Source of the DNA: Promethearchaeota archaeon
Lineage (GTDB): Archaea; Asgardarchaeota; Lokiarchaeia; Sigyniarchaeales; SOKP01
NCBI GenBank assembly: GCA_008080735.1
Contig: SHMW01000010.1
Coordinates: 24,976 to 88,975, forward strand
DNA length: 64,000 nt
Direction: 5' to 3'
The stretch's first letter is position 1, and each line of letters begins with the position of its first letter. The notes below the pieces were generated by a model. It was not told the origin of the DNA and ran no database searches. It saw only the letters and a list, made by a program, of their open reading frames with translations. The translations under genes and the position numbers were made by a program. Positions 4,703-61,400 of the stretch are shown piece after piece.

Positions 4703-5842
4703 TTACTCACTCTTAAAATATTTTTTGTAGATTAGGTAAAAAAGCAGACCGATAATAAATCCTATGGTGATATTGAGAAAAAAACATCCTAAAGCTGAGA
4801 TGATAATTAGGGGAATGGTTTTCCAATCCTCAATCTTTTTTAGGGCTACTTTTCCTAATGTAAATGAGGTAAAAATTAGCATCGCGCCTAAAATTCCTTC
4901 AGGAAAATAAATAAATATGGTAAATAATAAATCTGAGAAAAAGAGTCCCAACACTAATTCAATAGTGCCTTCGAAAATCATTGAGCCCCCCGTTCTCGCA
5001 CCGAAAGCATATTGTGCTGCCAATCCCCCAGATCCATGACATAATGGCATTCCTCCGAAGAATGGACTTACAAGATTAATCACTCCCATATTGGAGGCCA
5101 AGTTATTAGAATTAATATCACTTTTCACTTCTGGAAATAATTCTTTTATTAATGCAATCGTAGCGATCATAACATTGGTTAGCGTGAGTATTAATTGACC
5201 GATTCCGGCTACTAAAAACCCAATAATAATGTTTTCTATCGTTGGTAAATGAAATGGGATGTGAGGGATATTAAAGGCTAAGACATCTATGGTTAGTATC
5301 CCCGAGAAAATCATAATGCATACCCCTAGAATCACTAAAAATATTGCTGTAGGGACTTTCTCCCAGCGAATGAATAGAATAATGATGATAAGAGCGATTG
5401 TTCCTATGATATAATCATTTATAAATAAGAGTAGAGCAGACCAGCCTAAAATAAAAGATAATCCAAGTTGAATTCCCCGTACAGATAATTTTGGGACTTT
5501 TTTAGTAATTTTATCAAGAATCTTGGTAGCTCCAAGAATGAACCAGACAATTCCCGTGGAAAATCCTGTAGAAATAACTTTGTTTGGAGTCCATTTTTGA
5601 GAAAGTGCGATTGTACCAATCGTTTTTTGTGGTTGGACGGGTAATGGGAGATTATAACGTATCCCTAATACTATATTGGTTAACCCTAAACATAAGAAAA
5701 TGCCAGCGGGGTTTAACTTAACTAACGAAACATACCCGATTAAGAACGGGACTAAAGTTCCCCAATCTCCAAATGCCCCACTTAGCTCGTTTAATGAAAA
5801 TTTTCTCGCTGCTTTTTCTTTGAAATTTTCGATTTCAGAAAT
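4703..5842 (-). CDS. Molybdate/sulfate transporter, MOT1 family
   Basis: ELSGAFGDWGT, PLPVQPQK and GGMPLCHGSGGLAAQYAFGARTG motifs with multiple TM helices. Start is uncertain: ATT 5842 after a GAGGTGA RBS, GTG 5851 or TTG 5863. Confidence 0.85.
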   Translation of the reverse strand: MSEIENFKEKAARKFSLNELSGAFGDWGTLVPFLIGYVSLVKLNPAGIFLCLGLTNIVLGIRYNLPLPVQPQKTIGTIALSQKWTPNKVISTGFSTGIVWFILGATKILDKITKKVPKLSVRGIQLGLSFILGWSALLLFINDYIIGTIALIIIILFIRWEKVPTAIFLVILGVCIMIFSGILTIDVLAFNIPHIPFHLPTIENIIIGFLVAGIGQLILTLTNVMIATIALIKELFPEVKSDINSNNLASNMGVINLVSPFFGGMPLCHGSGGLAAQYAFGARTGGSMIFEGTIELVLGLFFSDLLFTIFIYFPEGILGAMLIFTSFTLGKVALKKIEDWKTIPLIIISALGCFFLNITIGFIIGLLFYLIYKKYFKSE

Positions 5843-5909
5843 ATATCTCACCTCGATTATCAAAGAATCGTACTTATAATATAAAGAGCTTTAGATTATT
5901 TTTTATTTA

Positions 5910-7034
5910 TTACTTATCTATATGTTTATCCCAAATGAGTTCAAATAGAGCGCCTTTATCGTTTTTGCTATAGATAATTTTACCTCCATATCTATCCATT
6001 ATTTTTTCAATGATGGTAAGACCTTTTAATTTTCTATTCTGTGTGGGGTTTTGGAAATGTGATTTAACAATCTCTTCTGGTAGGCCAGGACCGAAATCTT
6101 GTATTTTAATCGTTGCAGAATTATCATCTTCACATAGGGAAATATCTATCTTTTTGGTATTTGTGTGCTTAAACGCATTCCTAATTAATTCTTTGAGAAG
6201 CAAGTCCAAATAATCATCAGCTAAGACATTACAGGTGCCTTCAATTTCAATTGGTTGAGAGTATTCTTTTTTTATCTGTTCAATGATGTTTCTTGGATTA
6301 ATCTCTCTCAAAGAACTTTCCCTTGTGAAAAGTTCTTTTAATTCTTCAATATGTTCAATAGAATCTAAAATACTTTGAATATGTGGCATTAGAGTTTCTA
6401 TTATTTCATTAGATAATTCTGAATCTTCTTGTTTCATTTGTAAAAAACCGTAAATAAACGTGAGGTTGTTGGCAATTTCATGTCGAACGGTACTAGTTAA
6501 TAATTTAAGGTTGTCTCGTTGTTCTTTGATTTTTTCCTGAGCTCTTCTTAGTGTCTCATTGTTAAATATGAGTTCAAGGTGAGCATCCACAGCTACTTTC
6601 ATCTCTTTCATTAGATTTTTCTTTTTCTCTGAGAAATTGCGCTCTTTCTTGTCGAGCACACAGATTGTTCCGAAAACGTCGCCCGTCGGCCATTCCAGAG
6701 GAAATCCTAAGTAGGAGATTAATTTATTTTCTTCCAATCCCGGTTTGTTTTTATGAATGGGATCCTTATAGGCATTAGGTACTTCATGCATTTTTTTTCT
6801 CTTTATAGTAATTTCACAGTATTTATCAAAAATTGTCTCTTTATAATTCTTAGGTATTGGATTTCCCTCGTTCTCGCTTGTTATAATTGCCTCAAGATAT
6901 GGATCTTCATATTTCATGATGATTGCCGCGGGGACACCCATTAATTGGGCTAAAGCATTGACTAATCTTTGCCATTTATCCATTATTGATTGCGGCAAAT
7001 CTAGGTCACTAACTAACATTTGAGTTTTCCCCAT
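5910..7034 (-). CDS. GAF-domain sensor histidine kinase
   Basis: GAF (SYLGFPL...FGTICVLD), H-box RHEIANNL, N-box ELIRNAFKH, G1 box IQDFGPG. Confidence 0.88.
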   Translation of the reverse strand: MGKTQMLVSDLDLPQSIMDKWQRLVNALAQLMGVPAAIIMKYEDPYLEAIITSENEGNPIPKNYKETIFDKYCEITIKRKKMHEVPNAYKDPIHKNKPGLEENKLISYLGFPLEWPTGDVFGTICVLDKKERNFSEKKKNLMKEMKVAVDAHLELIFNNETLRRAQEKIKEQRDNLKLLTSTVRHEIANNLTFIYGFLQMKQEDSELSNEIIETLMPHIQSILDSIEHIEELKELFTRESSLREINPRNIIEQIKKEYSQPIEIEGTCNVLADDYLDLLLKELIRNAFKHTNTKKIDISLCEDDNSATIKIQDFGPGLPEEIVKSHFQNPTQNRKLKGLTIIEKIMDRYGGKIIYSKNDKGALFELIWDKHIDK

Positions 7035-7256
7035 ACTAGATTAATTAAACTAATTATTTTTAAATTCTGTTCTTAATAGATTTAATAGTCTATATTAATA
7101 TATTGAGATATATTCTATATTCAGAAAAATAAAAGAAAATAATAGTACGAATCTATTTTTAGGTTCCAGAATTTAGGTTAAAATCCCTTAAGGGATGAGT
7201 TTTCTCGCATTTTCGATGATAAAATTAAGGTAAAATATTTCCAGTAATTTCTTACT

Positions 7257-7415
7257 TCATAAACTCTCATATAATTCTGATGGTTTCCCACCGCACCCAA
7301 AGGTAAAAGACAAAAATTTTCTCTTTTTTTCACACTGGGGGCAGTAATAATTTCCCGATTCCTCTTTATCATCAAATGTAAATCCACATTCTTCGCAGAT
7401 CACATAGCTTTTCAT
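7257..7415 (-). CDS. 52-aa zinc-ribbon microprotein, Cys paralog of the selenoprotein at 10074-10193 (not in ORF track)
   Basis: Hand translation: MKSYVICEECGFTFDDKEESGNYYCPQCEKKRKFLSFTFGCGGKPSELYESL; CxxC...CxxC plus a fifth Cys. Confidence 0.8.
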   Translation of the reverse strand: MKSYVICEECGFTFDDKEESGNYYCPQCEKKRKFLSFTFGCGGKPSELYESL

Positions 7416-7572
7416 ATCCAATTTATGCTAAATAGATTATTAAAAACCAGAGGTTATAATCCCTTAATAATTGGAATGACCTTGAGATAATAGATAATAA
7501 AAAATTCATATTATACTATTTTCTAAAAATTGAGAAATAAAAAGTGTTAGGACAAAATCCGTGAGAATTGAG

Positions 7573-7704
7573 TTAGGATTCTGATTCTTTTTCAGACTCC
7601 ATCTTAAAGAATTCGGTGTATTTCCCACAATTAGCGCAGTAATACTTTCCTGGTTCATCTTCATCATCGATCGCGGTTCCGCATGATCTACAAATAACAG
7701 TCAT
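7573..7704 (-). CDS. 43-aa zinc-ribbon microprotein (not in ORF track)
   Basis: Hand translation: MTVICRSCGTAIDDEDEPGKYYCANCGKYTEFFKMESEKESES; aligns with 7257-7415 (VICxxCG...DD.E..G.YYC..C). Confidence 0.8.
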   Translation of the reverse strand: MTVICRSCGTAIDDEDEPGKYYCANCGKYTEFFKMESEKESES

Positions 7705-7768: not shown

Positions 7769-8401
7769 TTAAATGATACAAATTGGATCAGTCAAAAATC
7801 CGTCTCCCATTGGGATACTGTCAAAGATAGCTCTTGCGTAATTGGAAGAGTATCTATATGCGCAAAAGTCCCCTATGAAAGTTCCGCGTAAACCATAATG
7901 AAGATGAGAGCCATCATTTGCATATAGCAAATCTGCAATTGGGTCACCTATATTCACACGTTGAAGTATAGATACTTTAATGGCGTTTCGTTGTAAAGTG
8001 TTATTATAGGTATCATCGCCGTTAAAATTAGGTTCTATACATAATTCGACTGCCCATCCCCAATTTATAAGAATACTTACACTGAATAATATATTAGAAT
8101 TTTCTGAATGAGGATTTTTATGTTCTGTTATACCCATAACGGTGCCTTTCACGGGTGAGATTATAGTCACTGTATCATTAATAACGAGATCAATTCCATT
8201 ATGGTGTGTTCCAGGACCGCTCCAATCTGGTACTCCATAAGGACGAATATGGTCAATTTTCCCAGATTCTTCAATTGGAAATTCTAATGATGGATCGAAC
8301 GGTATTGGGGAAACGCCTATAAGTAGGATCGCAGTAACGAATAATGAAAGGAGAAGAATGGGAATAAAGACCAATAACTTTTTCTTTTTGGTCCAATTCA
8401 T
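7769..8401 (-). CDS. Membrane-anchored M23 family peptidase-like protein
   Basis: N-terminal TM anchor, HxxxD (HNGID), SPVKGTV, RVNIGDPIA and HxH (HLH) motifs. Confidence 0.7.
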   Translation of the reverse strand: MNWTKKKKLLVFIPILLLSLFVTAILLIGVSPIPFDPSLEFPIEESGKIDHIRPYGVPDWSGPGTHHNGIDLVINDTVTIISPVKGTVMGITEHKNPHSENSNILFSVSILINWGWAVELCIEPNFNGDDTYNNTLQRNAIKVSILQRVNIGDPIADLLYANDGSHLHYGLRGTFIGDFCAYRYSSNYARAIFDSIPMGDGFLTDPICII

Positions 8402-8526
8402 TTTTTCATGATTATAAAACTATAAAATATTATTTAAGTAAAAAATGTATGATTTTGATAATAAATTTTTTCTCAACATTAATCATCGAACTATTAAGAG
8501 AGGATATGAAATAAAAAATGAAAGGG

Positions 8527-8596
8527 TTCCCATAACCCGCGCGAGGCAGTCATCAAATGTCTCATTTTTTTACATTTGACTCATCCAAAATGGGAA
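8527..8596 (-). promoter_or_regulatory. SECIS element 1 (3'-UTR of the UxxU Prx-like gene)
   Basis: Minus strand: TTCCCAT...gg ATGAG TCAAATGT AAAAAAATGAG ACATTTGA TGAC ...ATGGGAA. UGAN/NGAN core, 8-bp helix, A-rich loop and lower helix, starting 3 nt after the TAA. Confidence 0.88.
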
Positions 8597-8599
8597 ATT

Positions 8600-9091
8600 T
8601 TAACAATATTGTTTAATTGCGTTGAGAATAGTCTCGATATCTGGTCTGTCCGTCTTAGTTTCAGCAATATATTTCCACATAATTTTTCCCGAGTTGTTAA
8701 TTAAAAATTTAGACGGTATAGCTTGCTTAGATTTAATATTTGTTTCTGCTATATTTTCATATATCTCAATATCGAATTTTTCTGCAATTTCTGCGTTCTT
8801 ATCTGAGATTTGTGAAAAATGTAGGTTGTTCTGCTCTTGATATTCCCGCATATGGTTTTCACTGTCCGATGATATTGAAATAAGTTTAACATTGTATTTT
8901 CGGATTTTTTCTAGGTTCTTATTTAAGAGAATAGAATGCTGTTTTCAATGACCTCACCAAGTCCCTCGGAAGAAATCGATAAGTAATCAACTATAATTAT
9001 CTATTATCTCTGATAAATCAATTATATTTCCGAGAATGTCTGTAATCTTAAAGTATGGTGCGTTTTTTCCAACCATAAGTCCTTCATTCAT
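8600..9091 (-). CDS. Peroxiredoxin-like (AhpC/TSA) selenoprotein with a UxxU motif and a third in-frame TGA
   Basis: ATG 9091 is in frame with ORF 8600-8851: MNEGLMVGKNAPYF...NYS*LLIDFFRGTW*GH*KQH...LISISSDS...AIPSKFLIN...DRP. TGAs at 8987-8989, 8954-8956 and 8945-8947; SECIS downstream. Confidence 0.85.
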
Positions 9092-9307
9092 AATTTAGGC
9101 ACTGTGATTATATTATTGAAGTATAGGTGTTTAAACAATCATCTTAAATGTATTATAAATAATAAATTATGACCAATATCTAAAAACAAATTTATAATGT
9201 TTTTTTATTGTATTTTGAATTGTACATTTTTTTCAGCTTTTCTCCCCAAAAGTATGATCATGCCGAATTTTTAAAAGCTTAAAAAAATAAGAGAAAAGAG
9301 TCTAAAT

Positions 9308-9376
9308 ACCAGAACCTGGACAAAAGGTCGTCAACAAATGCCTCATTTTTTCTGCATCTGTATCATTCTCTCTGGT
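9308..9376 (-). promoter_or_regulatory. SECIS element 2 (3'-UTR of the UxxC Prx-like gene)
   Basis: Minus strand: ACCAGA..ga ATGAT ACAGATGC AGAAAAAATGAG GCATTTGT TGAC ...TCTGGT. Same geometry as SECIS 1 and the same AAAAAATGAG loop sequence. Confidence 0.88.
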
Positions 9377-9377
9377 T

Positions 9378-9893
9378 TTATAATTTTTTATCAATTTGCT
9401 CTGTTAGCAACTTGATTGAGGGCCTATCTTCCCTTGTACCAATATATCTCCATGCAATTTTCATTTCCTTTCCAATTAGAAAGGTGGAGGGAATCGCTAA
9501 TTTAGTCTTAAGATAGATTATATCTATGGCGCTTCCAAAGGTATACACATCAAATTTCTTCGCAATCCTCGCTCCTCTGTCAGAAACTAAAGGAAATGTA
9601 TATCCAAACTTACCGGATAATTCTTTTAAATGGTTTTTACTATCACTGGCAATTGCTATAAAGAACACCTTTCGTTTTTGAAATTCAGTTATATTTTTAT
9701 TAATTCTCTCTAAATGTTCTTTGCATGGAACTCAAAATGCGCCTCTAAAGAAATCTAATAGGATACCCCCAGAATCCTTCAAAACTTTTGTAAAATCTAA
9801 AATATTTTCGTTGATATCTACCAGCTGGTCAATAGGGATTTGAGATCCCACTTTTAATCCTTTATCAGAATCTTTATGCTCAATATCATTCAT
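9378..9893 (-). CDS. Peroxiredoxin-like (AhpC/TSA) selenoprotein with a UxxC motif
   Basis: ATG 9893 is in frame with ORF 9378-9668: ...GLKVGSQIP...GGILLDFFRGAF*VPCKEHL...IAIASDS...AIPSTFLIG...EDRP. A single TGA at 9732-9734 sits at the first redox-Cys position; SECIS downstream. Confidence 0.9.
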
Positions 9894-10001
9894 ACAAAAA
9901 GAGATCATGTGGAATGATTTATTTATTCCTTTTTTAAAAAATAACTTAATTATATTGACAGTGATCAGGAAGATAATTCTTATATATTGATGAGAAACCC
10001 T

Positions 10002-10060
10002 TGCAAGGTGGTCAACATAAATCTATAATTTGTATTTATGTCTCATTCCGTTAAAATGCA
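10002..10060 (-). promoter_or_regulatory. SECIS element 3 (3'-UTR of the zinc-ribbon micro-selenoprotein)
   Basis: Minus strand: TGCA...ga ATGAG ACATAAAT ACAAATTATAG ATTTATGT TGAC cacct TGCA. Perfect 8-bp helix, UGAG/UGAC core and an 11-nt loop containing AAA and ending AG. Confidence 0.82.
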
Positions 10061-10073
10061 CAGTATATAGTTT

Positions 10074-10193
10074 TTATCATTTGAAGCTAAAGACCATAAA
10101 ATATTGGATTGATTTTCACAAAGGGCAATAATGATAACCGTTGGTCTTCTTATCCAAATGTAATATTTTTCCGCATTTTTGACAAATTATCAT
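10074..10193 (-). CDS. Putative zinc-ribbon micro-selenoprotein, CxxC...CxxU...U (not in ORF track)
   Basis: Hand translation: MIICQKCGKILHLDKKTNGYHYCPL*KSIQYFMVFSFK* then TAA. TGAs at 10116-10118 and 10077-10079 both align with Cys in paralog 7257-7415; SECIS follows. Confidence 0.8.
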
Positions 10194-10338
10194 ATATTCT
10201 CTAAGAGTGTAAGCTTTTATTCTAAATTAAAAATAAGTTCTATATTTTAAAATATCGATAATTTTATTATCCAAAATAAATAAATGTTGATTAATCCAAA
10301 TTTTTTTCGAAAATATAACTAGAATCTTCTTGATCAAA

Positions 10339-11382
10339 ATGGAATTTGTCCGATATAATGAAGAGAAATATACAGTTGAAAAAGGATTCTTAGATTTAGG
10401 TCTGTTAGGTATAAAAAACTTACGAGAAGTCAAAGGACTAAACAAATTAAAAGATATTTACCACTTGGAATTGAGCTCTAATGAAATTTCTTGTATTGAT
10501 GGTTTAGAGGAACTCACCTCATTAGAAGTTTTAAACTTAGGGAGCAATTCGATCCTAGAAATATCAGGATTAGAGAGTTTAGAAAATTTGGAAGTATTGC
10601 ATCTAATTAGTAATCAGATCGCAGAAATTAAAGGATTAGAAAATCTAAGAAATCTAAAAGAACTCTATTTGCGAGGAAATCAAATTAAGAAAATAATGGG
10701 ATTAGAAAGTCTAAATAAATTGGAAAAATTAGACCTTTCTTGGAATCTTATCAAATCGATAGAAGGATTAGAAAATTTACAGAATTTACAAGTCCTCTGG
10801 ATAGCAGGAAATATAGTCACTCAAATTTCTGGATTAGAACATTTGAGTTCTTTGAAAATCTTAAATTTAGCGGGAAATCAAATACAAAAAATAACGAGTT
10901 TGGATAATCTGGAAGAAATAGAAGAGCTTTATCTAAATAACAATCGGATAAAAAAAATTGAAGGTATGGGGACTCTGAAAAACCTTGAATCACTATGGCT
11001 AAATGGAAATAAAATAAGCAAGATTGAAGGATTGGATAATCTTTCAAATCTAAAACTGTTAAATCTTAAAGAAAACAACTTACCAAGAATTACTGGGTTA
11101 TTAAAACAAAAAAATTTGAAAGAACTTTATTTATCTGGAAATGAGATAGGACATATTTCCGGACTTGAAACTTTAACTAATTTAGAAACGCTCGATCTAA
11201 ACGATAACAATATAAAGAAAATTAATGGCTTAGAAGCTCTAATGAATTTAAATTCCTTATGGATTAAAGGGAACCAACTACCTGAAGATGTATTAGAAAA
11301 ATTAGGGGGCATAGATTCGTCTGGATTTGCGAATGATCCTATTAAATTTGTAGAATATTGTCTAATCAATATTTCCCAATAA
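10339..11382 (+). CDS. Leucine-rich repeat protein (SDS22-like, 22-aa repeats)
   Basis: About 13 tandem LxxLxLxxNxIxxIxGLxxL repeats. Confidence 0.92.
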   Translation: MEFVRYNEEKYTVEKGFLDLGLLGIKNLREVKGLNKLKDIYHLELSSNEISCIDGLEELTSLEVLNLGSNSILEISGLESLENLEVLHLISNQIAEIKGLENLRNLKELYLRGNQIKKIMGLESLNKLEKLDLSWNLIKSIEGLENLQNLQVLWIAGNIVTQISGLEHLSSLKILNLAGNQIQKITSLDNLEEIEELYLNNNRIKKIEGMGTLKNLESLWLNGNKISKIEGLDNLSNLKLLNLKENNLPRITGLLKQKNLKELYLSGNEIGHISGLETLTNLETLDLNDNNIKKINGLEALMNLNSLWIKGNQLPEDVLEKLGGIDSSGFANDPIKFVEYCLINISQ

Positions 11383-58468: not shown

Positions 58469-61400
58469 TTACTGATACGAAAATTGAAAGCTTCTGAGAT
58501 AGTTCTCCTTCTTCAAGTTAATTATGGTACTTATGACCTTATTTCTCGGCTCATCTCTACCCACCATCCCAAAGCTCAAGAGATCGGAAAAAAAGAAATA
58601 CTCCTTTTCTTTTTGTATCTCATTAGCCAACTCTATTAGATCTTTTTCTAAATTATCAAGGTCGTCAGAGTCTTTATTTTGGTTAGTCTTTAGCGGATAC
58701 ATCAAAGAGATATTAAAATATTTTTCAACCAGTTTATCAGCTCCCTTAAACACGGATGTATCTCCTTTGAATGAGGTGATGAGGTTCTGGTATCGATCTT
58801 CGAACTCTTTTGTGAATTGAATTTGTTGCTCTTTCAAGTATTCGGAAGGCTGTTGCTCGGCAATTAATGCGATTCGTACATAATCCCCATCAGTTAAATT
58901 GATATGAAAATCATAGTAATTCATTTCAAACCCTTTTGCTTGTTTGGATAAGCCGTTCTTCTTAAATTCTCGCTTAAATGACGAAATTGCGTGTAAAAAT
59001 CCGCTTATTAGGTCTGGGTCTAACTTCTCAGAGGATATTTGCTGACTGTATATGGCGACACCAACCTCCTTATGAATGATCATAATATAGGAAAGTTTGA
59101 GGAGATCTTCAAGAATCATCGCATCCGTTTTCCATTTTTCTCTCAATCGCTCCATTTTTCTATGTCTAAGTACCATATACCCTGAGATACCTAAAATGAT
59201 CGCGATAAAGAGCGGGCTTAACATTATCATTGTGTCTAGAAATAATGTAACGCCATTTATCACTCTAAATTTCGTTGATGATGATTCCGATACTGCATAG
59301 ACATTTTCTTCGGCACATTGTACCCGTATGTAATATCCTCTTCCAGTTTCCTTCAAATCCAAATTGACTGAGGCTATCCCGTTCTCATCGGTTATGACGG
59401 GAAATTGATCTACAACTTGATCACTTGGATTCATCACTTGAAAATAAATCTTCAAATTAGTTATGGCCGTCCCGTTATCACCAGTCACATTCACGGAAAA
59501 GTATTGATTGCCCGCCATATATTCAGACGCAAATCCCGAAAGAAATTCTATTGTTGGTTTAATTTTATAGATTTCATAGGTTCCATTGACATCAAACCGA
59601 ACAAAGGGCCATATGGAAGTAATAACAAATTCATAATAGCCCCCCTCTGCAAAACCATTTTCTATTTCTGATTCCCAAGAACCTTGCTGAAGTCCATAGT
59701 TATTCACTTTCAAGCCATTTACTTCCATACCCAGATATTCGGGAGTGGTATCACCTTCGTCTACTCCAAACCCGATTTTCGAAGTGATGTCCGATGAAAT
59801 TAAATTCCGGATGTATATATATAAACTGACTTCATCTATACTCACATTAAATCCTTCAATTGTATCACTATTATACCTCAATCTCATTCTAAATAGATTA
59901 TCCGCTGATTCATTTAGTAATCTTAAAAATATCCAAGTTAAACTTGTATCAATTTCGGTGATGATTGTTTTTTCATTGTTATGTGCATAAGTTTTATTTT
60001 CGCTAATAGGAATCCAAGTATAATTTTCAAAAATTACCTCAAATGGACCTGTATCCATCTCTCCTTTGTAAACTTCTAAAATGGCATGTGTTAAATCTAC
60101 TTGATTTTGAAAACTAGTATTAGAGCTTATCCTAACCTCCATCTTGGGTAAATAAGGGTAAGGATACTTTACTAACCAATCGTAGAAATTAACATCCCAG
60201 AGGGAATTATTAAATTCATTTAAAATATTAAAATTAAATTCTGCTGTTAAATTATTCGAATCTGCTTGTAAATTCAAATATTCATTATCATTTTCGAAAA
60301 TTGTTGATAATTCATAATTCCCTTGGCCCTTATTTGTATCATTTTCAACTATTAGCTTATTTGGGTGCTCCAAATTCTCAATGAGAGGATCATATTTTTG
60401 AATTTCTGTTAGAGAGTCTATTTCACCAATTTCAATAGTAAGTTTATCAATGCTAACATTAAAGCTTCCATTCCCATTACCAGTATATTCAAACATGAAT
60501 CTTAAATTATTGTTATCGTTACTATTAATCCATTTAAGGAATTCAATTTTTTCATTTGGATCTCTTATTTCATAAGTCATGAGCTCTGAATTGTTGTTTT
60601 TTAAGTTAAAAAAATGAGAAATGTTTTGCCATCCAACTATAAAAGGTTGTTCAAAATTCCAAGCATATAGAGTTCCATCCTCAATATTTTCAGGGTGAGA
60701 TACATTTAGAGCTAGAGAAATTTCAATCTTAAAGAGTTTCGTATAGTGATTCAAATACCAATCTATCAATCCAAAAAAACCAAGAAATCCAAGAGCTTCA
60801 TCATATAAATCATGATAAGTACCTTCATAATTACGCAGATCCTCTAAATTGAAATCAGTAATAAATTTGACGTTATTAGACTCATTAGCAACAATATATT
60901 CATTTCCATCCATGTGTTCGACAAAAGAAGTCGGGTCTCCATCTTGTAGGGTTCCCTCTTCTTCCGTGGTGTTGACAACATTATTAAGAGTATAATTATC
61001 AAATATGAAATCGGGAGATTGGGCAAATATTTCTCCCTCTCCGATATCATCAGCTGCACCCTCATCAAGATTGAAATAGAGAAATTTTGGACCTCCTCCG
61101 TTATCAGTATCATCAGGTGGTATTTTTACGCGAAATGCAAACCAATATTTATCTATTCCATCCTCAAAAGTATGTTTGGTGTTTGAAATATTTAGAAATA
61201 CGGGACCATAATCAGAGGATTTAAAATCAAAAGTCACCCATTCGGGATAAATCTTGATAGGATGTGGTTTTTGAACCTTTCCCAGGGTTTCATTCGGGTT
61301 GGGCGTTCCAACCTCATCATCCGAACAATTTACAATCGCAACCTCCCACGAATTTTCATCCGTAAAATAAGTCTTATTGTTAATATCCTGAATTAAAATA

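Follow-up and report, generated by a model that had tools for sequence, protein, structure and literature searches.

The window analysed here, a stretch of 64,000 nucleotides (nt) from contig SHMW01000010.1 of a Promethearchaeota archaeon (GenBank assembly GCA_008080735.1, positions 24,976 to 88,975; Lokiarchaeia, Sigyniarchaeales, SOKP01), holds a lokiarchaeial locus that most probably encodes three selenoproteins, each signalled by its own selenocysteine insertion sequence (SECIS). We put the probability of this reading, which is drawn from sequence comparison, at about 80%. Two of the genes would encode proteins of the PrxL type, called PrxL-a and PrxL-b below. The third (the micro-gene) would encode a very small zinc-ribbon protein (the micro-protein), member of a family that would end in selenocysteine (Sec) and that we did not find in the selenoprotein lists searched. 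An earlier reading of the same DNA from its letters (the sequence-only reading) had proposed a cluster of three selenoprotein genes with a eukaryote-type SECIS behind each. Our results support it as essentially right, with corrections. Two thirds of it, namely the lokiSECIS hairpins and the PrxL genes, confirm published knowledge; the new part is the micro-gene family.

Three open reading frames (ORFs) on the minus strand are open only when TGA is read through, and together they contain six in-frame TGAs, exactly as the sequence-only reading had counted. The micro-gene (10193..10077) has 39 codons and reads MIICQKCG...YHYCPLU...FSFKU. Its TGAs are codon 26 (10118..10116; U26 in what follows) and codon 39 (10079..10077; U39), with the stop TAA at 10076..10074. 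PrxL-a (9908..9381) has 176 codons and a single TGA at codon 59 (9734..9732), which gives the redox box U59-V-P-C, and ends at TAA 9380..9378. The likely true start of PrxL-a is Met6 at 9893, and Cys5 is probably upstream of it. PrxL-b (9091..8603) has 163 codons, with TGA at codon 35 (8989..8987; U35) and at codons 46 and 49 (8956..8954 and 8947..8945), the latter two in a double-Sec redox box, W-U46-G-H-U49. Its stop is TAA 8602..8600.

A hairpin stands shortly after each TAA. The sequence-only reading had placed it within about 30 nt, and the ATGA cores indeed start at 10046 (27 nt past the TAA of the micro-gene), 9366 (11 nt past that of PrxL-a) and 8584 (15 nt past that of PrxL-b). All three follow one plan: ATGA-N, a helix of 8 base pairs (bp), an A-rich loop of 11–12 nt ending in AG, the complementary arm and TGAC. 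The helices are just those reported earlier, ACATAAAT/ATTTATGT for the micro-gene, ACAGATGC/GCATTTGT for PrxL-a and TCAAATGT/ACATTTGA for PrxL-b. The element of the micro-gene spans 9997..10056 on the minus strand (AUGA 10046..10043), with a stem of 8+1 bp, an 11-nt loop (ACAAATTATAG), UGAC and a mini-hairpin ACCUU-GCA-AGGGU. The element of PrxL-a (9316..9376, minus strand; AUGA 9366..9363) has a 12-nt loop (AGAAAAAATGAG) and UGAC, and that of PrxL-b (8535..8595, minus strand; AUGA 8584..8581) an 11-nt loop (AAAAAAATGAG) and UGAC.

The lokiSECIS has been defined by AUGA before the stem, a 9-bp stem, an 11-nt loop and GA after the stem (Mariotti et al. 2016, PMC4989117). Its loop opens with five nt that are mostly A and closes with an ultraconserved G preceded by A, and the element lies just after the stop codon (PMC4989117). 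All three hairpins of the locus are canonical lokiSECIS elements in which every published feature is present, in line with the sequence-only reading, which had invoked the eukaryote-like 3' SECIS of Lokiarchaeota. AUGA stands directly 5' of the main stem in all three and is invariant across 16 aligned elements, namely the 3 from the window and 13 from related genomes. Eight pairs of the stem are Watson-Crick or GU, and the additional closing pair is often non-canonical. In the same alignment the AAA and the final G of the loop are invariant. UGAC follows the stem in the three window elements, and its GAC is invariant in the alignment.

The pairing itself is strongly supported by comparison between sequences. 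All nine stem pairs had changed on both sides among the 16 elements, and none of 500 shuffles reached the observed covariation. Aligned cells were paired in 91% of cases, against 31–46% when the partner was slid by 1–3 columns. This bears out the earlier inference of covariation from helices that differ in sequence while keeping their pairs. Taken singly, the hairpins have ordinary minimum free energy z-scores (−0.6 to −1.3), so that the support for the hairpins comes from the comparison rather than from thermodynamics. No SECIS family of Rfam matched at E≤10 between positions 8000 and 10800 of the window. This agrees with the statement that standard tools miss lokiSECIS elements (PMC4989117).

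Directly after GAC, a covarying mini-hairpin of 4–6 bp occurs in all 49 lokiSECIS elements examined (the 3 of the window and 46 from other loci). Within the window these mini-hairpins lie on the minus strand at 10006..9994, 9326..9307 and 8545..8533, with the consensus RNCCYU-loop-RGGGU. Shuffled flanks form such a mini-hairpin 53% of the time. In the text, figures aside, of the lokiSECIS papers PMC4989117 and PMC11227280 we found no mention of it. It may stand in for the lower helix of the eukaryotic SECIS.

A covariance model built from lokiSECIS elements was scanned over the 4.15-Mb genome and gave only ten matches, nine of them strong. The micro-gene element scored 73.3 bits (E 5e-12), that of PrxL-a 52.3 bits (E 1.7e-7) and that of PrxL-b 62.9 bits (E 9e-10). 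Eight of the nine strong matches lie behind TGA-containing genes: besides the three window elements, three follow VhuD-type genes with two Sec each and two follow VhuU-type genes. A fourth VhuD element turned up by a pattern scan alone. The ninth strong match follows an unannotated small ORF with one TGA. A model that fired equally often behind genes lacking TGA would have refuted the sequence-only reading; instead, nine of the ten matches follow TGA-containing ORFs. The weak tenth match (C12:31771-31833, minus strand; 33 bits), with AUGA...UGAA, is probably a false positive, either a chance hit or a decayed element, as its loop lacks the AG end and the long ORF upstream contains no TGA.

The ninth strong match, a lokiSECIS of 57 bits, lies outside the window at C102:10369-10428 (plus strand). 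In the unannotated small membrane ORF before it, a transmembrane helix precedes ...NGEPSG-U-AC...; this could be a further small selenoprotein. In the VhuU-type genes at C102:1739-1798 and C80:19209-19269 the frame enters the SECIS and the first stop is the UGA of the AUGA core. An AUGA core that supplies the stop was likewise described for VhuU.1 by Mariotti et al. (PMC4989117).

The check for Sec machinery also came out in favour of the sequence-only reading. SelD, itself with one in-frame TGA (181 bits), and a SelB-type factor (244 bits) both score over their cut-offs, and SepSecS reaches 389 bits. A PSTK-like kinase, at 179 bits, is below the equivalog cut-off, with PSTK by far its best family. 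The tRNA for Sec (tRNA-Sec) was detected in this genome neither by Rfam nor by ARAGORN, and is present in all six other genomes of the genus. A blastn search with a query from the same genus recovered it on contig C15 (~60226-60370, minus strand), outside the window and adjoining SepSecS. Two inserts, one of 21 nt following the anticodon and one of 29 nt within the T-loop, split this copy, which explains why both programs missed it. When spliced in silico, with intron boundaries placed from the alignment only, it is folded by ARAGORN into a tRNA whose acceptor stem has 9 bp and whose T-stem has 4 bp, with a long D-stem and the anticodon UCA. In G001, a genome of the same genus, the copy is uninterrupted; G006 gave a match of 119 nt. 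With SelD, SepSecS, the SelB-type factor, the PSTK-like kinase and tRNA-Sec all found, the machinery is complete.

These results leave next to nothing for a genome-wide reassignment of TGA to Trp or Gly, as in genetic codes 4 and 25. The position of U35, where homologues have Gly or Ala, could be taken in its favour. However, TGA ends 18% of the long ORFs in this genome, five of the six TGAs align with Cys, and the genome has dedicated SECIS elements as well as the complete Sec machinery. We therefore reject this explanation. Instead, each of the three mRNAs would carry a type-I lokiSECIS just after its UAA, with a core resembling the AUGA/GA kink-turn and a 3' mini-hairpin, and this element would let a SelB of the archaeal/eukaryotic type deliver Sec-tRNA(Sec) to the in-frame UGAs upstream.

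Both larger genes match the AhpC/TSA family of Pfam (PF00578), PrxL-a with E 5e-19 and 68.8 bits and PrxL-b with E 8e-23 and 81.1 bits (cut-off 26), and so agree with the two thioredoxin-fold oxidoreductases proposed earlier. Aligned with 11 homologues, their redox boxes read FFRGAF-U-VP-C in PrxL-a and FFRGTW-U-GH-U in PrxL-b. By these boxes PrxL-a (UxxC) is assigned to the PrxL.2 type and PrxL-b (UxxU) to the PrxL.1 type, both already published (PMC4989117). Among 134 other genomes of the taxonomic family of this archaeon, PrxL matches were obtained in 86, with one or two TGAs in every match of full length. The Loki PrxL proteins have been reported to have no Cys outside the redox box (PMC4989117), a descriptive rather than a catalytic feature. 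PrxL-b departs from this description, since it ends in Cys163 (…KQYC, 8603..8605), which also sets it apart from 12 aligned homologues.

The sequence-only reading needs a correction at the third TGA of PrxL-b, which stands in place of Gly or Ala rather than Cys. The column of codon 35 (...NYNG-LLIDFF...) is Gly or Ala in all 12 other aligned homologues, and the nearest homologues in the genus, at most 57% identical, have only the two TGAs of the redox box. Two PrxL matches with three TGAs (G257 and G231) were considered as counterparts of U35. Of these, one is artefactual, arising from a masked or frameshifted contig, and the other is only a partial match, so that U35 has no counterpart.

The micro-protein has homologues at 32 other loci. 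No full-length homologue outside the taxonomic family was found when 60 relatives were searched in six frames and 400 genomes of the phylum with a profile. Across the 33 distinct loci the protein is 37 residues long, rarely 39–40, and follows the pattern M-[IL]-x-C-x-x-C-G...G-Y-x-[YF]-C-x-x-C-K...[YF]-F...K-X. Pairwise differences at codon positions 1, 2 and 3 amount to 0.38, 0.28 and 0.52, which is the signature of a coding sequence. The final residue X is encoded by TGA, followed directly by TAA or TAG, at 28 of the 33 loci, and the covariance model finds a SECIS downstream of every one of these, 27–49 nt after the stop and in one case at ~136 nt. At the remaining five loci TGT (Cys) precedes the stop, and none of them has a SECIS of its own before the next gene; the only SECIS there is the one behind the following PrxL gene. 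It should be kept in mind that the loci are related to one another and that the Cys forms may be a single clade. The association of K-TGA-stop with a SECIS at 28 loci and of K-TGT-stop with its absence at five points to the C-terminal residue as the conserved Sec of the family. The UGA would then be the last sense codon, backed directly by UAA or UAG.

The internal Sec of the CxxU motif, to which the sequence-only reading gave weight, fares less well. The TGA is there (CPLU, codon 26), yet it occurs only in this genome. All other loci have TGT or TGC at this codon, from which it differs by a single change at the third position, and the conserved Sec is the terminal one. The peptide after U26 is nevertheless kept, with 10 of 12 residues matching the closest orthologue. 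The claim that the genes are invisible to standard gene callers holds only in part. Public protein sets do contain the family, as unnamed products of 36 residues that stop at Lys, one residue short. The seven selenoprotein families named for Asgard archaea (PMC11227280; review PMC13188914) and the other published lists in the literature that we searched do not include it.

AlphaFold2 run on the family alignment returns a three-stranded ribbon with a predicted local distance difference test score of 84.6. We therefore predict a Cys4-type zinc ribbon with rubredoxin-like CxxCG...CPxC knuckles and a short beta-strand tail ending in Lys-Sec, in keeping with the metal-binding micro-selenoprotein proposed earlier. 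From the CxxC...CxxC spacing and the ribbon fold, the metal is predicted to be bound by four Cys (or Cys3Sec) ligands. Pfam zinc-ribbon families match the micro-protein below their cut-offs throughout. The best profile match in the PDB (9fhl_C, E 2e-4) stands among generic ribbons only. Foldseek gave no match against the PDB at E≤1e-3, with ribosomal L33-like ribbons as the best, and a protein Atlas search with a database homologue returned generic zinc-ribbon clusters only. Neither of the two PDB searches points to a function.

In 13 loci from five genera (g1, g4, g5, g11 and g12) a PrxL gene of the same orientation follows immediately downstream of the micro-gene. In other genera the two are not neighbours, as described below.

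Several observations weigh against our interpretation of the locus. U26 and U35 occur in one metagenome-assembled genome only, and assembly errors or early decay could account for them. Structure and sequence searches yield only a generic zinc-ribbon resemblance for the micro-protein. The adjacency of micro-gene and PrxL is absent in three genera (g2, g9 and g10), and three genomes (G003, G015 and G024) have the micro-gene and no PrxL match at E≤1e-25. Finally, the terminal UGA of the micro family lies 33–55 nt upstream of the AUGA core, and a UGA this near the core could terminate translation in part or fully. Many Loki selenoprotein genes end in a UGA close to the SECIS, from which it was argued that UGAs near a lokiSECIS act as stops and that a minimal distance is needed (PMC4989117).

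If the terminal TGA were a plain stop, the family would encode a product of 36 residues ending in Lys, and the hairpin would be some other conserved RNA element, for instance one that terminates transcription, stabilises the RNA or binds a protein. In this genome, the internal TGA would then truncate the peptide to 25 residues and make the gene a pseudogene. Apart from the published inference just mentioned, this explanation can draw on the VhuD and PrxL genes, whose TGA stops lie near the SECIS or within it, and on the 36-residue products of the gene callers. Yet in the cases that we examined (VhuD, PrxL and VhuU) the terminating UGAs are no more than ~15 nt from the AUGA core or fall within it, as opposed to at least 33 nt in the micro family. 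The size of the ribosome footprint is established. Given that size and the spacing of 33–55 nt, the hairpin would lie outside the mRNA channel of the ribosome when the terminal UGA is in the A site. Moreover, 27 of the 28 genes would keep a covarying SECIS with no UGA for it to serve. The SECIS is missing exactly in the five genes with Cys in place of TGA, and in the type-B paralogue the aligned residue is Cys. A second in-frame stop also follows the TGA in 28 of 28 loci, whereas only 5% of the TGA stops of long ORFs in this genome are followed by an in-frame TAA or TAG. A plain stop leaves the SECIS without a target, the obligatory second stop and the SECIS loss in the Cys forms unexplained, and we therefore consider it improbable. 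Partial termination alongside Sec insertion is quite possible.

The two TGAs restricted to this genome, U26 and U35, call for a separate assessment. They could be assembly or consensus errors, or fresh nonsense mutations in decaying copies, so that four of the six TGAs would be genuine. Consistent with this, they are found in this genome alone, U35 replaces a conserved Gly/Ala and not a Cys, which is unusual for Sec, and the contamination of the genome is estimated at 7%. In contrast, the genes are otherwise intact and keep their invariant residues, conserved C-terminal parts and SECIS elements. One step is enough to turn the Cys codon TGT into TGA, in a gene that already decodes UGA. In addition, there is precedent for one SECIS in the 3' untranslated region (3'-UTR) serving multiple UGAs, with up to six in HdrA-VhuD (PMC4989117). 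A SECIS in the 3'-UTR does not fix the codon position, and hence we regard decoding of U26 and U35 as Sec as most likely, with errors or decay as the doubtful alternative. U26 would represent a TGT-to-TGA change at the fourth metal ligand and U35 a TGA at a Gly/Ala site, both having arisen only in this genome.

For the role of the micro-protein our best guess, and a tentative one, is a small carrier stabilised by a metal, with a selenolate at its C-terminus that exchanges with the U/C redox box of PrxL. A redox partnership of the two is a conjecture, and in view of the genera without adjacency and the three genomes with a micro-gene and no PrxL match it would not be obligate. These neighbourhoods do not establish the single redox module of the sequence-only reading. 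In the three genera that lack adjacency, the constant neighbours are a divergent leucine-rich-repeat gene and a downstream gene that is AlaX-like by eye only. On an environmental contig, the micro-gene is followed by small called ORFs of 48, 45 and 54 residues, none with a Pfam match; we read these as a PrxL gene cut at its TGA plus small ribbon genes.

The three genes are separated by AT-rich intergenic gaps of 165 and 286 nt, and a T-run lies 3' of each SECIS. From this, each gene appears to be its own transcription unit. A GC hairpin with a T-run 3' of the PrxL-b element (8538..8515) is one terminator-like site. Divergent from the micro-gene lies the gene of a leucine-rich-repeat protein (10330..11382, plus strand), which is the most constant neighbour of the micro-gene across related genomes. 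Downstream of the trio, two paralogous small zinc-ribbon genes occupy 7188..7704 on the minus strand. One (7573..7704) encodes 43 residues with an acidic tail and has neither TGA nor SECIS. The other (7260..7421) encodes ~52–54 residues (...CPQC...FTFGCGGKP...), has Cys at the positions aligned with both U26 and U39, and ends at TGA 7259..7257. It has no SECIS, and the covariance-model scan gave no match there. In several related genomes (e.g. G199, G202 and G214) matches to the paralogous ribbons likewise occur at a distance of a few hundred nt from the micro-gene. The ribbon genes of the window are closely followed downstream (4703..7034, minus strand) by an MFS_MOT1-type (molybdate-transporter-like) permease and a GAF-histidine kinase.

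On balance, we lean towards a previously unlisted Asgard selenoprotein family, among the smallest, with Sec at the C-terminus and a UGA that abuts the stop 33–55 nt before the SECIS core. This view includes an opportunistic spread of Sec to further codons, and a selenol tail that is perhaps a mobile redox arm for PrxL. If true, the minimal spacing between UGA and SECIS in a eukaryote-like system would be 33 nt or less, and Sec would have spread to a metal ligand and a Gly/Ala site, as expected from position-independent recoding by a 3'-UTR SECIS. To our knowledge, it would also be the first archaeal selenoprotein with Sec as the C-terminal residue. Published lists have been built mostly by homology to known selenoproteins, and a gene of 37 codons whose only UGA looks like a stop escapes them. 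The family would enlarge the selenoprotein set of the archaea closest to eukaryotes. It would offer a natural test of how near to a eukaryote-like SECIS a UGA can lie and still be recoded, and of how a Sec UGA is told from an adjacent stop. The micro-protein, minimal in size and open to synthesis, would also suit the study of a C-terminal selenolate on a metal-ribbon scaffold, and the locus would be an illustration of extra Sec codons appearing in genes that already own a SECIS.

Compared with known systems, the three hairpins differ in nothing essential from the lokiSECIS (PMC4989117), the type-I eSECIS-like element of Asgard archaea (Huang et al. 2024, PMC11227280); only the PrxL-a loop, at 12 nt, exceeds the published 11 nt. 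With the eukaryotic SECIS (Rfam SECIS_1 and related) they share the AUGA...GA core and the A-rich apical loop. However, their stem is shorter, and the 5' and 3' flanks form no clear lower helix. The two PrxL genes have the AhpC/TSA fold, the FFRGxW-U-xx-U/C box and an own lokiSECIS per gene in common with PrxL.1 and PrxL.2 (PMC4989117), from which PrxL-b differs by its third TGA at the Gly/Ala position and its C-terminal Cys163.

The micro-protein resembles small archaeal Cys4 zinc-ribbon proteins (HVO_2753-like and CPxCG-related zinc finger proteins) in its size, its CxxCG...CPxC knuckles and its three-stranded ribbon. In contrast to these, it reaches no family cut-off, and the ...F-K-U tail is specific to the micro family. 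We know of no such small ribbon protein that contains Sec. Among eukaryotes, selenoproteins with Sec at or near the C-terminus include thioredoxin reductase (Gly-Cys-Sec-Gly), SELENOK and SELENOS. They share with the micro family a Sec in the C-terminal tail, a UGA among the last codons and a kink-turn SECIS in the 3'-UTR. The micro-protein differs from them in that it would carry Sec as the very last residue with no neighbouring Cys, on a zinc ribbon of 37 residues in an archaeal host and bearing no sequence relationship to the eukaryotic proteins.

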